Shown here: positions 6,752 to 13,678 of the stretch, one piece after another
Numbering within the stretch: position 1 is the first letter of the stretch
Layout of the letters: each line of letters starts with the position of its first letter
From: Candidatus Zixiibacteriota bacterium
Lineage (GTDB): Bacteria; Zixibacteria; MSB-5A5; CAIYYT01
Length of the DNA: 27,639 bases
Assembly: GCA_040235515.1 (NCBI GenBank)
Contig: JBECKX010000149.1
Location: 1-27,639 of the forward strand
Direction of reading: 5' to 3'
Notes under the pieces: generated by a model
Database searches by the model: none
What the model was told of the DNA's origin: nothing
What the model saw: the letters and a program-made list of their open reading frames with translations, nothing else
Position numbers and translations under genes: made by a program

Positions 6752-6796
6752 CTACGGACAGCTCGGAGCCGGTCCACCGCCAAAGATAAAGTTGAT
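6752..6796. repeat. Copy 1 of a 45-bp near-identical direct repeat (3' ends of two dockerin-tagged genes)
   Basis: cta[c]ggacagctcggagccggtccaccg[c]caaagataaagttgat matches 7797-7841 at 43/45 positions. Confidence 0.85.
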
Positions 6797-7576
6797 CAGG
6801 AAAACTGCATCAGCAATCGAGATGTTACCGCTGCTATCGGAATCCCCTCGTGTGCAGCGGGTATTCGTTATCTGTCCTCTAATCTCGCCGATCGGTGCCT
6901 CAGGCGTGTGAATGAGTACATAGAGATTTCCCGCGAACAGGTCATTAAGAAGGTCCGAAGTCATTGGCAAAGTATCTGTCATTGGGCTATGCCAATCATC
7001 AAACGTCAGGATGGGTGGTCCGTTAACGCACGGCGGGCCAACATGAACATGTGCGAACATCGCACTGTCAATCGTATGCACTACCGAAATCCTTAACTCA
7101 CTGCTGTCTGCTGTAAGCACGGCGCTACCAACACCGACATCGGGGCTGCCGGTCCCGTAACAGTCACCGGCTTGATCGCCATTGAGTAAGAATCCGTACG
7201 GGATACCTTTCGGAGCGCCCGGCTTTAGCTGCAGATGCAGGGTGTCCTTCATTGTTGTGGGATGCACAGAGCAATAGTAAGGATAAGAACCGGCTTGATC
7301 ACTCGTGGTAAACACGATTTCCAGCAATACCCCGGGAGTATTCGATACACCCGAATCCCACGCCTTCGGTGAACTCGCCTCAGATGTCGTCGAATGCGTC
7401 CCATTGACCAATATCCACCGAACCGTGTCGCCTTGAACCACTGCTTTATTACCTGGCGAAAATGAAAAATCCGCGACCTCGATTTCGTGAACCGTCGCCC
7501 GCGCGGGTTCAGCCACCAAAGCTATATGGAAGGAAATCGCAGCGATTATGACACAACGAGTTACACTACGCATCAT
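6752..7576 (-). CDS. Secreted plastocyanin-like cupredoxin + CHRD domain + dockerin-like C-terminal tag
   Basis: Signal peptide. Type-1 Cu ligand pattern: His in GTHST plus YYCSVHPTTM. CHRD motifs AHVH and GNLYVLIHT...GEIRGQI. C-terminal GDSDSSGNISIADAVFLINFIFGGGPAP. AGGAGG RBS. Confidence 0.85.
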   Translation of the reverse strand: MMRSVTRCVIIAAISFHIALVAEPARATVHEIEVADFSFSPGNKAVVQGDTVRWILVNGTHSTTSEASSPKAWDSGVSNTPGVLLEIVFTTSDQAGSYPYYCSVHPTTMKDTLHLQLKPGAPKGIPYGFLLNGDQAGDCYGTGSPDVGVGSAVLTADSSELRISVVHTIDSAMFAHVHVGPPCVNGPPILTFDDWHSPMTDTLPMTSDLLNDLFAGNLYVLIHTPEAPIGEIRGQITNTRCTRGDSDSSGNISIADAVFLINFIFGGGPAPSCP

Positions 7577-7796
7577 GCAGCCTCCTGCGGATGAGAAGTA
7601 GACTTCAGGTTTTGGGCGATTGGTCCCATTTCCAAGATACAGAAGTCAACCGTTTTTGGAAACAGCTACTTCATGGATGATCGTTTCCTATTTTGGGGCG
7701 AACAAGAATAGCGAGAGATACTAGAAAGGGCGCAAACGTCGTAGTTTGCACCCTGTGTACGCAGAAGTAACTGGTTTCGATCAGTTGTTGAAGTTG

Positions 7797-7841
7797 CTAT
7801 GGACAGCTCGGAGCCGGTCCACCGGCAAAGATAAAGTTGAT
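7797..7841. repeat. Copy 2 of the 45-bp direct repeat
   Basis: cta[t]ggacagctcggagccggtccaccg[g]caaagataaagttgat. Confidence 0.85.
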
Positions 7842-9959
7842 AATCGCCACTGCATCACCGATCGATACCGTGCCGCTGTTGTCAGCGTCACCGTTGCACG
7901 GGGCTGGACCGCCACCGAATATGTAGTTGATGATAAACACCGCATCACCGATCGAGACAAAACCATCACCGTTGGCATCACCACACGAGCAGGTCGGACC
8001 GATGTCGAGTTTGACCACGCGCAATCCGACGTAAGGACTTTGAGAAGGTGTCGTCGCGGTTCCGCTGAAAAATCCCACGTTCGACTCCGGTGGATCGGGA
8101 AAATCGCTGTGTGATCCGATCAGCGGCGCAAGGATGAATCCGCCGCTCATGAACTGATCCTCTGTCCACTCCGCCACATTGCCACCCTGATCGTAGGTGC
8201 CGTAATGGCTGACCGAAAGCGGTCCGGCGCCACCGACTGTCGTCAGGTTACCCGTAACACCATTCCAGATCGCGCCATCACCGTAATTGACCACGTTCGC
8301 ACCCGGATTGCCGACATCCCCGCTCGCGGTTGCAGTCGCCTTGGTCGGCGGCGAGGCATCACTGCTTGTGGGCAACAACCAGTAATCGGGGGTGCCGTTA
8401 CCATCGGCCGCCGGGTCGAGCGGATCGTAAAATGCCGCCTTGTAAAGCTCATCCACAGTCGCCACCGCCCACTTCGCCCCCGGCTTGCGCGCATAAATGC
8501 CTCCTACCGGGCTGGTCATGTCATAGGCGCCATCCTCGGTTGTCGTCGAATCCTGATCGCCGACCGGCATGCCGTTATGAAGCCAGTTGCAGAAACGCAT
8601 CGCGTCATGCAGCGTGATGAAGTTCACCGGCTTGTTTGCCATATCTGGTTTGGTGGTGTATGTCTTGTTCGGACACCCCCCGGTAAGAATAATCCCACCC
8701 ATCGGATCGACCGCCTGGCTCGGATCAAACAACTGGTTGATGTCACAACTGCCGACAGCATTCAGGCACGCCACCCATTGCTCGTTGGTGATTTCATACT
8801 TGCTGATCTCGTAATCATAGCCCACGCTGCCATATCCATTAACATCCGCCGCGTTGTTGGCATCTCCCACCGGGACTGTCTCGATGAATACGATATCATT
8901 GTCGATATTTGTCAGGCTCGACTGCCCGATCTCCCCGTCATAACAAGCATCATTGGAACTCGCGGTACCGCGCACGTGATAGAGGCTGTCGCCATCCTGC
9001 ACGGCATCATCCTGTCCCACCACCCAGAAGTATTGCGGTATCGGCGCTGTCGCCTGCGTGAAAATCAGTTGTGTTACACTAGCAAGCCCCTCGCCGGGAG
9101 CCGTTGTGATGATATCCACGAACACGGTGTCAGTGGGTACAGCCGTGATCATGCACTCGATCTCTACCGAGTCACCGTCCTCCGAAGTCAGATTTCCACC
9201 TGTCGGTACGACATTGACATAGCAGGGCGCGCAGTTGAGCAGGTGAAGTGGCCGCAGCACGGGAACCCTGTTGAGATAGGGAGCCGCCGCGATATTCTGG
9301 TAGTCCTCCCAGGTTTCCGACGAGTCAAATGCCTCGTGCACGGCAACGATCCCCTCGCCGAGCACACCGGGCGTCACCTGTACACGGGTACCCATGCAGG
9401 GGTTCGGGGCGCTCGGGAAGTACAATTCCAGCCATACCGAGGAATAGGGGGTGGTATCGTAAGTCGTATCAAGCTCAACCACCACGAAGTCAGTGGCGGT
9501 GATGGCTCCCGGCAGGGTGACAGCCACGGCATCCAGGAGAATCCCGGGCCGCAGGTCCCCGAACGCCAGGTTATCGTTCGCATAGACACGCAACTCTGCA
9601 GTCGAGTCAGCCGGTGTTGGGCGTTGCGCCTGCAGGGCGACATAATTTAGCTGCATCCCGAGCGCTACGTAACGAGCGCAATGGCTGACTCCAAATCCAT
9701 GATCCGTAGCACCCGCAATCTCAAGCGGCGCCGCCGAATTCGGATCATCAAGGCGATACCCGTAGTCAACGCAACGATTCGCCGGCAAACTTAGCCCGCT
9801 CAAACAGGTCGGTTGACCACCGCCACCGCACTGTACCGCGGTCGCAAACGTCTCCCCGCTCAAGACCGCTATCAATGAAATCGCCAGACAAGCAGGGAAC
9901 CAGAGTGCCGAAACGTGACCACGCTTCAGCAAGCTGCTCCTTCGTCTCGAAATACTCAT
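7797..9959 (-). CDS. Secreted multidomain protein: Calx-beta-like + SUMF1/FGE-sulfatase (C-type lectin fold) domain + duplicated dockerin-like repeat
   Basis: Signal peptide. Calx-beta-like segment TSEDG...VVGQDDAVQDGD...NIDND. FGE-type motifs ISKYEITNEQW, PVNFITLHDAMRFCNWL and YGTYDQGGNVAEW. Two dockerin-like repeats (GDANGDGFVSIGDAV and GDADNSGTVSIGDAV). Confidence 0.85.
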   Translation of the reverse strand: MSISRRRSSLLKRGHVSALWFPACLAISLIAVLSGETFATAVQCGGGGQPTCLSGLSLPANRCVDYGYRLDDPNSAAPLEIAGATDHGFGVSHCARYVALGMQLNYVALQAQRPTPADSTAELRVYANDNLAFGDLRPGILLDAVAVTLPGAITATDFVVVELDTTYDTTPYSSVWLELYFPSAPNPCMGTRVQVTPGVLGEGIVAVHEAFDSSETWEDYQNIAAAPYLNRVPVLRPLHLLNCAPCYVNVVPTGGNLTSEDGDSVEIECMITAVPTDTVFVDIITTAPGEGLASVTQLIFTQATAPIPQYFWVVGQDDAVQDGDSLYHVRGTASSNDACYDGEIGQSSLTNIDNDIVFIETVPVGDANNAADVNGYGSVGYDYEISKYEITNEQWVACLNAVGSCDINQLFDPSQAVDPMGGIILTGGCPNKTYTTKPDMANKPVNFITLHDAMRFCNWLHNGMPVGDQDSTTTEDGAYDMTSPVGGIYARKPGAKWAVATVDELYKAAFYDPLDPAADGNGTPDYWLLPTSSDASPPTKATATASGDVGNPGANVVNYGDGAIWNGVTGNLTTVGGAGPLSVSHYGTYDQGGNVAEWTEDQFMSGGFILAPLIGSHSDFPDPPESNVGFFSGTATTPSQSPYVGLRVVKLDIGPTCSCGDANGDGFVSIGDAVFIINYIFGGGPAPCNGDADNSGTVSIGDAVAIINFIFAGGPAPSCP

Positions 9960-10417: not shown

Positions 10418-11548
10418 TTGACACCACGCTGCAGCTTCACGACTTCTATCGCATTGACTCGTGAATGCCTCAATCTATGCGCCGCAATCTGCCTCCTTAT
10501 CCTGACCATTTGTCCCACGGCTTCAGCTTTCCATGAAGGGGGAACCGCCTCCTGCCAGGCATGCCACACGATGAAAAACAGCCAGGACGGCACACCGGTC
10601 GATCCGGGAAATCCATCCGGCAACGAGTGGCTGCTCAATGGTGAGACTGCCAGCGATGTCTGTCTCTCCTGTCACTCAGATAAGTTCGGCGCAGTCCTCG
10701 GTGGTGACCCAACCAATCCGCCGCCGGAGAAGGGTGCCGGGAATTTCGTATTCCTCTTTGAAGATAATATCAATGATGCTCCGGATGGCATGACCAACCA
10801 GCTGGCGGGGCATGCCGCTGGCCACAGCATCGTCGCACCCGCCTACGGCCTCTTCCCCGATCCGGAGTGGAGTACCGCACCCGGTGGAGATTATCCAGCC
10901 GCCGACCTCGGCTGCACCAGTTGTCACGATCCACACGGCAACGGCAACTTCCGCATGCTCTATGGCGCAGGACCGATCCAGGAGGGGAGCTTCACCTTTC
11001 TTTACCCGGCTCCGACCGCCGCAGGTATCGATCTGCTGACCGGAGTCGAGTCGCAAACGAGTCATTCCGCTTATCATAATGGAATGTCACAGTGGTGTTC
11101 CAACTGTCATGGGGAGTATCACGACGCCATCTCGCTCGGCAGCTTCGAGCATCGCTTCAACCATCCTCTCTCCGCACGCTATGCCGGTGAATACAACAGC
11201 TATAACGGCACGGCAGACCCGGATGGAGGGGCTCAGGCCACCGCATACCTGCCGCAGGTTCCCTTCGAAGAACCGACCATGCAGACCTCCTCGACATCGG
11301 GACCGTTTCCCTCAAGCCGCACCAACTGTCTTACCTGTCACCGTGCGCACGCCTCCTCAGCTCCGCGCGCAACTCGCTGGGATACGAGAGTGACCACGCT
11401 CGGCCAGGATGGCGTTGTGTCCGGCTCCTATGCGCTCCCCAATCCCTACGCCGACCCCGCACAGGAACAGCTCTGCCGCAAGTGCCATGAAACCGATCCC
11501 AACGACCAGGGTCCGGTGGCCGCTCCGCTCACATCGCCATCAGATTAA
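10418..11548 (+). CDS. OmcS-like secreted hexaheme c-type cytochrome
   Basis: GGAGG RBS and TTG start. Signal peptide ending ASA-FHEGG. Six CxxCH motifs (CQACH, CLSCH, CTSCH, CSNCH, CLTCH, CRKCH). OmcS-like contexts FHxGG..CxxCHTM, SCHDPHG, GMSQWCSNCH, VPFE and CLTCHRAHAS. Confidence 0.88.
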   Translation: MTPRCSFTTSIALTRECLNLCAAICLLILTICPTASAFHEGGTASCQACHTMKNSQDGTPVDPGNPSGNEWLLNGETASDVCLSCHSDKFGAVLGGDPTNPPPEKGAGNFVFLFEDNINDAPDGMTNQLAGHAAGHSIVAPAYGLFPDPEWSTAPGGDYPAADLGCTSCHDPHGNGNFRMLYGAGPIQEGSFTFLYPAPTAAGIDLLTGVESQTSHSAYHNGMSQWCSNCHGEYHDAISLGSFEHRFNHPLSARYAGEYNSYNGTADPDGGAQATAYLPQVPFEEPTMQTSSTSGPFPSSRTNCLTCHRAHASSAPRATRWDTRVTTLGQDGVVSGSYALPNPYADPAQEQLCRKCHETDPNDQGPVAAPLTSPSD

Positions 11549-11889: not shown

Positions 11890-12024
11890 AGTGCTCCTGA
11901 CTTGGAGGGCCATCTGACAGCTCTCCGGCTTAGCCCTGACGACTTTACCCTTGTAATTGAGTCCATCTCTACCGAGATTAGAATCGGGGATACCTGGATG
12001 CAAGTCAATTGGGGAGTGATGCCA

Positions 12025-12612
12025 ATGGCACATAAGTTGTGGAAAAAGGAATATCATGCGCTTCTGAACACACTGCAGCAGCAGTGGAATGCGGAGATAA
12101 GCACGCCGAAGCTGCCTGATCGGAATGTTCCCCGTGCAGTCGCATCCAGCTACTTCTTCTATCCGCGACTTCTCGCGGATATGGATACACGCAGAATCGT
12201 ACTCTCACTTAACGAAGTCCCGGCCGGCAAAGAGGTCCCGGAAACAGGCGAAGAAGACGAGTATCTGCATTTCACGGTCGTCGGGGAATTCCCGGCTACC
12301 TTCATCGTCACACACGAGAACTTCCTCTCCCGGCTTAAGAAGTTTCTTCGGATCGATCATGAATTTCAAACCGGCAATCGGCAATTCGACGACGACTACT
12401 ACTTGATCGCTTACTCCGATGCGGCTAAGGCGAAGCTGCGGGAGCCGTCGCTGCAGGGTGCGATTCGCAGTCTCGAACCCTTCGTTGCAATCGAGTTAAG
12501 GGAGAAGACAATCGAATTGTCGCGCGGTGTTGCAACTGCTAGTGACCTGCAACCGGAACCGCTCGAACAGACCTTCAAGAACCTGATCGCAATCGCAGAG
12601 CTGCTCAGCTAG
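12025..12612 (+). CDS. Hypothetical protein
   Basis: Long ORF with GGGGAG 8 nt before ATG 12025. No confident family assignment. Confidence 0.65.
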   Translation: MAHKLWKKEYHALLNTLQQQWNAEISTPKLPDRNVPRAVASSYFFYPRLLADMDTRRIVLSLNEVPAGKEVPETGEEDEYLHFTVVGEFPATFIVTHENFLSRLKKFLRIDHEFQTGNRQFDDDYYLIAYSDAAKAKLREPSLQGAIRSLEPFVAIELREKTIELSRGVATASDLQPEPLEQTFKNLIAIAELLS

Positions 12613-12629: not shown

Positions 12630-13016
12630 CTACTTCGTTCCCAGACAAGCCAGCACAAACTGTCGCGATTTCGCCTCCGTCCAGGAGTGGGTCTTGCTCA
12701 GCGCGAATTCATTCGGGTTGAACTGCGCGGAATTGCTGGAACCTTGCTGCAGCGGGCCCTTCCACTTGATCGGGTACGCATTGACTCGCTTCGACACCGC
12801 CCTCACAGGTGTTCCCGACTCATTGAATAACGTGAACTTCTCCGTAATCCTCTTCAGCAGCGTCTTGCCTTCACTGATCCCTGAAAGCTTCATCACTCCG
12901 CGCGCAGCCGTGTTGATGCCAGCCTGGCCGCCGGATGCGACAGCTATGATTCTGGCGAGTGCCTCTCGCGGCGAAACCGTGGTCTTGATATGCAATTCTT
13001 GAATTTCAACTGGCAT
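12630..13016 (-). CDS. Small mosaic protein carrying contractile-injection-system-like peptide motifs (DUF5908-like N-terminus, Afp7-like and gp19-like motifs)
   Basis: AAGGA RBS. Motifs MPVEIQELHIKTTV, ITEKFTLFNESGTPVRA, NAYPIKWKGP and QFNPNEFALSKTHSW. Confidence 0.75.
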   Translation of the reverse strand: MPVEIQELHIKTTVSPREALARIIAVASGGQAGINTAARGVMKLSGISEGKTLLKRITEKFTLFNESGTPVRAVSKRVNAYPIKWKGPLQQGSSNSAQFNPNEFALSKTHSWTEAKSRQFVLACLGTK

Positions 13017-13050
13017 TCTTGATTCCTTTCAAATCTCCTGAATTCGCGAT

Positions 13051-13416
13051 TTATCGTTTGCTGCTGCCACTGCCGTATCGATAAGACTCAGCCACCTTCT
13101 GCGCCTGACTGCTCGGCATGCGCTTGCCGGTCATGCCGTCACCAAACTGAATCGTCGAGTTGCCGGCCTTGGACCTGCTGAGCTTGTAGCTGCCTCCCGG
13201 CTTCGACTTCGCAGGACCCGCATTCAGCTGGCTGAGCTGATATGCCGCCTTCAGCGCCTTCATCCCTTGCGGGGTCGTCGACAAATCCTGGATCATTCTG
13301 ACTGCCTGAGTGAATCCGGCAGGGCCGGAATTGACTAACTTCGTCAGCAGATTGTTCAGATAGCCGACGTCGGGCCCCTGAATCTTGTTCGGCCACGCGG
13401 TGTGAATAGGTGCCAT
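13051..13416 (-). CDS. Small mosaic protein carrying gp19 tube-like and baseplate J/Afp11-like peptide motifs
   Basis: Strong AGGAGGT RBS. Motifs AWPNKIQGPD and IQFGDGMTGKRMPS...YRYGSG. Confidence 0.75.
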   Translation of the reverse strand: MAPIHTAWPNKIQGPDVGYLNNLLTKLVNSGPAGFTQAVRMIQDLSTTPQGMKALKAAYQLSQLNAGPAKSKPGGSYKLSRSKAGNSTIQFGDGMTGKRMPSSQAQKVAESYRYGSGSSKR

Positions 13417-13678
13417 TTTACCTCCTCTGCGAATTTCTGTTTACAGTTATTGTCGTGCGTGGTTGCGATTAGTTCGGTGAGTGACGGAACTATTATCGAC
13501 ATTGTTGCTCTAAATAGGAAATAAAATGGCACGATCGTCGCGCGCCGCGTGCTTCCGCTGCGGCGGAGATTCCTATTGACTATGCCCCTGAACTCTATAA
13601 CTTCCTTCAATTCTGAGACTTTCCGCGAATCGGGCTCTCCGGCGATTCGCAGTTCAATATGACCGAAAGGCTTCAAAT

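Follow-up and report, generated by a model that had tools for sequence, protein, structure and literature searches.

The described systems closest to the proteins reported here are parts or cargo of eCIS, or proteins that act on phage tails. The Alg6/Afp6 plug (DUF5908, PDB 7aef_t) is a protein of ~52 residues with a C-terminal trimer helix, and its N-terminal strand is a contact element that lines the spike cavity (PMC8894135, in excerpt). DUF4157 (eCIS_core, PF13699) occurs in cargo such as Cgo1 and Cgo2 of AlgoCIS, together with a disordered loading sequence and a C-terminal effector domain (PMC8894135, PMC11297309 and bioRxiv 10.64898/2026.05.27.728243, each in excerpt). Tab and Tai, which are encoded by prophages or satellites, block tail assembly and target phage tails (excerpts of PMC10884400 and PMC11364771).

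The family described here differs from each of these systems. Its member P0002 begins with the same N-terminal strand motif as the plug, but is 128 residues long, continues after this head with a core and tube peptides, lies in no eCIS cluster and ends in a helix that does not score as the trimer helix of the plug. Subtype A of the family passes the Pfam cut-off for DUF4157 and keeps the HExxH motif, but lacks positions 1–10 of the model, stops ~10 residues past HExxH and has a predicted helical core, with neither a loading sequence nor an effector domain. Tab and Tai act on the assembly of a tail-like machine, the mode that we propose below, a likeness that comes from descriptions and not from sequences; borrowed structural peptides are not described for them in the excerpts of the two sources, and the core family, unlike them, is not in a prophage or satellite in the window or in the flanks read in relatives. 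Compared with the targets of diversity-generating retroelements, the core family has no hypervariable region, and a reverse transcriptase (RVT_1) was found in 0/5 carrier genomes tested, including that of P0002. A T6SS is present in the host, yet the family genes, unlike those of T6SS cargo, are unlinked to vgrG, hcp or an immunity gene. By the features tested, the core family is not an eCIS gene, a plug, a cargo, a retroelement target or a member of Tab/Tai; by analogy with the latter, it might act by blocking assembly.

The window, by which we mean the whole stretch of 27,639 nucleotides analysed (contig JBECKX010000149.1 of a Candidatus Zixiibacteriota bacterium), carries two members of the family, both on the minus strand and pointing away from proS. 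Gene 1 (P0001, 121 aa; 13051..13416, minus) encodes a tube-like head peptide, the core and a baseplate-like tail (subtype B), and gene 2 (P0002, 128 aa; 12630..13016, minus) a plug-like head, the core, tube and tube-initiator peptides and a C-terminal helix (subtype C). Read from the sequence, each is preceded by a ribosome-binding-site-like element, GAGGAGG for gene 1 (13421..13427, minus) and AAAGGA for gene 2 (13024..13029, minus); a promoter scan stayed at chance level and no common upstream motif was evident by eye in 19 members. The neighbours of the pair in the window are proS, a cupin and a gene of no known type. The gene at 11902–12612 has no Pfam match, is convergent with gene 2 and is retained beside the pair in a same-genus genome. 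Further along lie a multiheme cytochrome c gene (10418–11548) and, at 6752–9959, minus-strand genes for secreted-looking proteins with similar C-terminal repeats, which we take to be dockerin-like, where short plus-strand ORFs are probably shadows. The host genome (G000) is 100% complete by markers, and phmmer and core profiles return P0001 and P0002 from it and no further paralog. When 13,822 short ORFs are ranked by their eCIS-like peptides, these two take the first two places. One DNA contig spans both genes with zero differences and may be the source sample; among RNA data sets, none was listed as containing them, a result that does not bear on expression.

An earlier note on this DNA had reported a gapless match of 10/26 identities between residues 31–56 of P0001 (13249–13326) and residues 30–55 of P0002 (12852–12929), which we reproduce. 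For the pair alone the match is marginal: its Smith-Waterman score of 42 is equalled or beaten by 72/5000 shuffles (p ~0.014), 57/5000 shuffles reach at least 10 identities in any 26-residue diagonal, and DNA identity across the match is 40/78. It becomes clear through orthologs. A full-length P0002 query retrieves orthologs at 60% and 54% identity, and two P0002 orthologs, picked up independently with full-length P0002, score 64 and 66 against P0001, values that 0/3000 shuffles reach. When 49,619 six-frame ORFs are searched with a profile built from eight rows of another genus, which were themselves found with P0001, P0001 is the top match (E 6e-10) and P0002 comes next (E 0.037); with just the five DUF4157-type rows, P0002 is returned at E 0.24. 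When profiles of the P0001 and P0002 subtypes are compared, the core alone aligns (94%, E 1e-7; 0/60 column shuffles), and the P0002 subtype aligns with three other subtypes over 35–56 columns at 91–95% probability (0/60 column shuffles each), one of the four P0002-type rows in these comparisons having been found with the core profile. Together, these results confirm that P0001 and P0002 share a real core.

The core covers residues 18–62 of P0001 (13231..13365, minus), as located by sequence and profile comparison with helices inferred from models of two relatives, and residues 16–60 of P0002 (12837..12971, minus), as located by profile comparisons, with predicted helices at 16–27, 31–46 and 48–60 and pLDDT of 84–92 in blocks across residues 11–60. 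The proposed constant helical core is accordingly shared and helical by prediction, but its length is ~45 residues plus a C-terminal helix and not the 26 first suggested. A recent tandem duplication of genes 1 and 2 does not fit the low DNA identity given above or the fact that the P0001 core is nearer the DUF4157-type cores (~40%) than the P0002 core; a tree of the core, built from 31 rows and 51 columns, has poor resolution and neither shows nor rejects a tandem-gene clade (p-AU 0.20). An origin of the core as an eCIS fragment (gp25 or Peptidase M91-like) is not supported, as no match was found among 213 eCIS-locus proteins (best E 0.33) and 17 cores have no Pfam family in common. Peptidase M91 matches arise from whole subtype A proteins, so that the core may have a remote link to that family.

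The first core profile gave matches in 18/285 genomes of the phylum. After divergent members were added, 36 matches (E 1.3e-4 or better), 19 of them already in the profile by construction, were obtained in 23/285 genomes; a further 11 weaker rows (E 0.005–0.04), of which the four inspected were noise-like, are excluded from this count. All 36 sit in open frames of 97–195 codons, and the carriers are the host genome, 19/20 relatives of the same taxonomic family and 3/108 genomes of another family. A search of 1.84 billion representatives with the core returned 22 matches. Of these, 16 are proteins of 93–174 residues (E 2e-8 or better); the other six are longer and match in several stretches, and we regard them as noise. 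A word-seeded search aimed at longer proteins returned 16 matches among 7,997 scored. Since these are all of 101–134 residues and the six long matches are judged noise, neither search shows the core as part of a large protein. The profile search proposed in the earlier note has in this way recovered a family, in which P0001 and P0002 are old paralogs among conserved small proteins with one predicted helical core. In the main texts and abstracts searched, no description of the family was found, and it is apparently unreported.

The same note held that the flanks of the core carry different CIS-like peptides. We scored 12-residue windows against the 213 eCIS-locus proteins and eight size-matched decoy sets, and found six windows in P0002 and two in P0001 above all decoys. 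Six of the eCIS loci had been fetched with P0002-derived patterns, and the test was repeated without them; in this independent set the P0001 baseplate peptide scores 62, three P0002 peptides score 39–43 and the P0001 head is weak at 30. In P0001, residues 6–17 (13366..13401, minus) resemble the AWP-K strand of the eCIS tube (gp19/Afp1–Afp5; 37 vs a decoy maximum of 28) and residues 77–118 (13063..13188, minus) the FGDG..G region of the eCIS baseplate wedge (TIGR02243, E 0.021; 12-mer 55 vs a decoy maximum of 33). Three P0001 relatives have the TIGR02243-like tail at E 1.5e-11 to 1.9e-7.

In P0002, residues 1–12 (12981..13016, minus) form an N-terminal strand like that of DUF5908, the Alg6/Afp6 plug family (Pfam E 9e-6); this head finds no partner in the independent eCIS set and is supported by Pfam, and for one DUF5908 protein a search finds Alg6 (chain 7aef_t) at E 0.004. 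Residues 57–73 (12798..12848, minus) resemble the C-terminal hairpin of the Afp7/Alg7-type CIS_tube, both by window scoring and by PF19266 (E 3.4e-6, over the cut-off). Residues 79–90 (12747..12782, minus), which are predicted to be disordered (pLDDT under 50 at 75–97), resemble a gp19 tube strand (PF06841, E 0.022; 49 vs a decoy maximum of 38), and subtype C matches a PDB tube protein at E 0.0035. Finally, residues 97–113 (12678..12728, minus) resemble the N-terminal FNP motif of CIS_tube (46 vs a decoy maximum of 31; 40 in the independent set), so that the N-terminal CIS_tube motif follows the C-terminal one, the reverse of the donor order. The best coverage of the tube, initiator and baseplate profiles is 25/158, 43/134 and 37/659 positions, and no full-length domain is present. 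Pfam, profile and decoy-scored windows agree that the flanks of the two proteins carry different CIS-like peptides, the N-terminal tube-like peptide of P0001 being the weakest.

The grafts define subtypes. Subtype A, in which the core is joined to a shortened DUF4157 (absent in P0001 and P0002), is the commonest, with 15 ORFs and one contig-edge fragment in 16/20 family genomes; 15 family genomes have one copy, and minimal forms of 93–95 residues occur in three distant genomes. Subtype B, with the baseplate-wedge motif after the core, comprises P0001 and three relatives, and subtype C, with a plug head before the core and CIS_tube and gp19 peptides after it, P0002 and three orthologs. Members of subtype D have a head like the C-terminal strand of gp19, one of them also having a peptide like a spike-type protein (48 vs decoy 30) that is not repeated in the independent eCIS set, and subtype F has a different gp19 motif as head, followed by a divergent core. 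Two members have no recognised graft, one by scoring and one by eye. A 37-residue ORF in G017 (L108:1477-1590) retains a subtype F gp19-like head and last residues and has lost the core. The sole member detected in G006 (L122:1302-1616) is without a recognisable graft, and the sheath gene of this genome is in pieces, possibly through assembly errors.

The same-genus genome has an ortholog of gene 2 and matching flanking genes, yet its gene 1 is of subtype D in place of B. The cassette in one syntenic slot thus differs between two species that share a genus; either the cassette was exchanged or one paralog replaced another. Among orthologs of gene 2 (L002:1495-1869 versus P0002 and P0003), the tube-strand versions best match different tube genes, with scores of 75 and 57, which may reflect repeated re-acquisition.

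Within the subtypes the sequences are constrained. pN is below pS in core and flanks for 15/15 gene pairs, the distant pairs being saturated at synonymous sites; flank pN/pS values are 0/0.41, 0.010/0.30 and 0.12/0.68, and 0.32/0.83 for P0002, whose intact orthologs are 52–60% identical. The flanks are under purifying selection, which speaks neither of decay nor of rapid diversification. The variable cassettes suggested beside the core stand in so far as the peptide sets differ between paralogs; they are not hypervariable, and within a subtype are conserved like the core. That the pair is what remains of a decayed eCIS, its core match being due to chance, would agree with the marginal statistics of the pair alone (p ~0.014) and with each peptide being a fragment, but the intact orthologs, the purifying selection, the family-wide core and the absence of eCIS remnants beside P0001 and P0002 in the window make this hardly credible. 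A diversified paralog family rather than random decay, as first proposed, is what the core profile, the intact orthologs and the selection indicate.

The AlphaFold2 model of P0002 (mean pLDDT 74) contains, beside the three core helices, a predicted fourth helix at residues 114–125 (12642..12677, minus). In the modelled subtype A protein these three helices recur, together with one extra helix and a C-terminal helix, within which the HExxH segment lies. The models predict a helical bundle that bears the peptides in loops and termini. As a candidate plug helix the fourth helix of P0002 was rejected: a profile of the plug C-terminus (seven usable rows) gave zero positive scores in 31 members. Fold searches with the predicted bundles gave no clear match, the best Z scores (4.8 and 6.2) being of the size that widespread helical arrangements give; in the ESM Atlas, P0002 had no usable match and a graft-free member just leads at 0.79–0.80, and a PDB sequence search with subtype A gave nothing beyond weak HExxH matches. 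Most of the 31 members are basic, and none (0/31) has a hydrophobic, signal-like stretch.

The position of HExxH in the modelled C-terminal helix, and the prevalence of the DUF4157 type, would fit a history in which a truncated DUF4157 gene had been domesticated as a small helical protein for an unrelated task and later paralogs had patched loops and a fourth helix with eCIS fragments, with no binding to any machine. Members without recognisable peptides, and neighbourhoods unrelated to injection systems, also fit such an exaptation. It leaves unexplained, however, why the grafts derive from at least five eCIS genes and hit conserved motifs, and why peptides predicted to be disordered are nonetheless conserved across four orthologs; we regard it as somewhat unlikely.

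No eCIS was found in the host genome: gp19, eCIS_core and Phage_sheath_1 are absent, there is no TIGR02243 among the matches listed, and CIS_tube and DUF5908 matches are confined to P0002. In G007, the gp19 locus (L054–L055, G007:C19) is a prophage whose tubes are gp19-like and whose baseplate is TIGR02243-like, and the gp19 loci of G003, G011, G015 and G017 are classed as prophage by likeness to it and not from a gene-by-gene reading. The peptides are nearer to eCIS than to resident prophage tail proteins in 15/15 windows, several of which are near background in both sets, and the sets differ in size (33k vs 64k residues). The window and the flanks read in relatives contain housekeeping-type genes, with no prophage and no evident defence island.

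These observations bear on a role inside the cell, in which the proteins would serve as decoys for eCIS parts or cargo that enter the cell, or would block the assembly of eCIS-like tails encoded by incoming mobile DNA, in the manner of Tab and Tai. Blocking tail assembly is a known defence (PMC10884400 and PMC11364771, in excerpt), and the missing export signal, the lack of a detected eCIS in the host and the six phylum genomes that have full-length DUF4157 cargo and all lack the core would suit it. The distance of the peptides from resident prophage tails in all 15 windows and the location of the genes outside prophages and evident defence islands argue against such a defence, which we consider unlikely. 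A baseplate is, moreover, not expected among injected parts, and this too counts against it.

The assumption that the hosts are without any contractile machine was abandoned when a VgrG-like match led to a T6SS locus. The host T6SS, which is presumably of a Bacteroidota-like subtype, has TssB-, TssC-, VgrG-, TssG- and TssK-like genes, most below NCBIfam cut-offs; Hcp was not found in the host assembly, and no paper on T6SS in Zixibacteria was found in the literature. A T6SS (L131–L134, host contigs C108 and C177) is kept in 21/21 family genomes, with the ClpV-like gene apparently split. Many weak TIGR02243 matches in 550–600-residue frames, one of which was checked, are probably the T6SS baseplate protein. 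The TssC-like sheath gene is present in the host, in 20/20 family genomes and in the three carriers outside the family; it is also present in 6/40 non-family relatives, G004 and G143, none with the core, kin not being independent. This distribution is compatible with a link between the T6SS and the core family. The core is absent from 39 genes of four T6SS loci, the neighbourhoods of family genes vary and lie outside T6SS loci, and no conserved partner or immunity gene was seen in those read.

Host T6SS proteins are unmatched by the peptides except at the head of VgrG. Among 18 VgrG starts, five have a plug-like head that scores 28–38 against the subtype C head, compared with a background maximum of 25 in 5,086 ORF starts; the other 13 have no clear head of this kind, and most of them come from genomes in which subtype C is likewise missing. 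The five proteins (L132:5172-7025, L137, L139, L140 and L141) belong to one genus and have an acidic run after the head. Subtype C was not found in these five genomes, and in G001, the sole carrier of subtype C whose VgrG start could be read, VgrG has no plug-like head. Judged from sequence, the plug-like head of VgrG is the only sign, and a hint at most, of a strand of this type functioning on the spike of the host itself.

We tentatively propose, as a possible reading, that the family members are T6SS-associated baits that dock on contractile-injection parts and jam eCIS assembly in neighbouring cells. Peptides of different eCIS proteins would be carried as baits on one predicted helical core, where they would have become fixed after rare recombination events with eCIS genes of foreign origin; the baits would leave the cell by the host's own T6SS and dock on eCIS parts in neighbouring cells, whose assembly would be jammed. 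The presence of plug, CIS_tube, gp19, baseplate and DUF4157 peptides on the same core, under purifying selection, argues for this reading, as do the contact role of the plug strand, the sheath gene in every carrier, the plug-like head of five VgrG proteins and the lack of a hydrophobic stretch in the 31 members. Against it, peptides of only 10–15 residues that come from beta-sheets may be unable to bind, and the 75–97 region of P0002 is predicted to be disordered; the genes lie outside T6SS loci with no conserved partner or immunity gene seen, the peptides match no host T6SS protein apart from the VgrG head, two members have no recognised peptide and the T6SS link is weak. The broader conception of a natural peptide-display scaffold, onto which contact motifs of rival machines are repeatedly grafted to give an inherited library of mimics for T6SS-delivered sabotage of eCIS-armed neighbours, seems to us rather doubtful.

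A contig of a gammaproteobacterial MAG has a 144-residue ORF (L115:3001-3435) in which plug-, CIS_tube- and gp19-like motifs are strung together but the core is missing, and no eCIS genes were found within the 6 kb read around it. The same motifs on an unrelated frame outside any eCIS locus would fit signal mimicry, in which displayed peptides would let the cell or its debris pass for eCIS-bearing, whether to a predator that avoids armed bacteria or to the immune sensor of a rival. Bacterial sensors of tail tube proteins do exist (Avs16; PMC13581612, in excerpt), but those of the Avs16 type are described as reading folds over extended interfaces, and eCIS is unmentioned in the excerpts of that source. 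Together with the missing export signal and the failure to find a receptor for the peptides, this makes signal mimicry improbable.

If the bait reading is true, conserved motifs of a rival's weapon are grafted onto a scaffold that can be used again and again, and bacteria maintain the resulting mimics; we have not found such a grafted-mimic mode of protein evolution and conflict described in the literature. A lone DUF4157, DUF5908 or CIS_tube match could then mark these mimics instead of an eCIS. The family itself is a natural swap series, with the same core, different grafts and graft-free members, with which the role of the borrowed eCIS peptides can be tested directly where the system is tractable, as in AlgoCIS.
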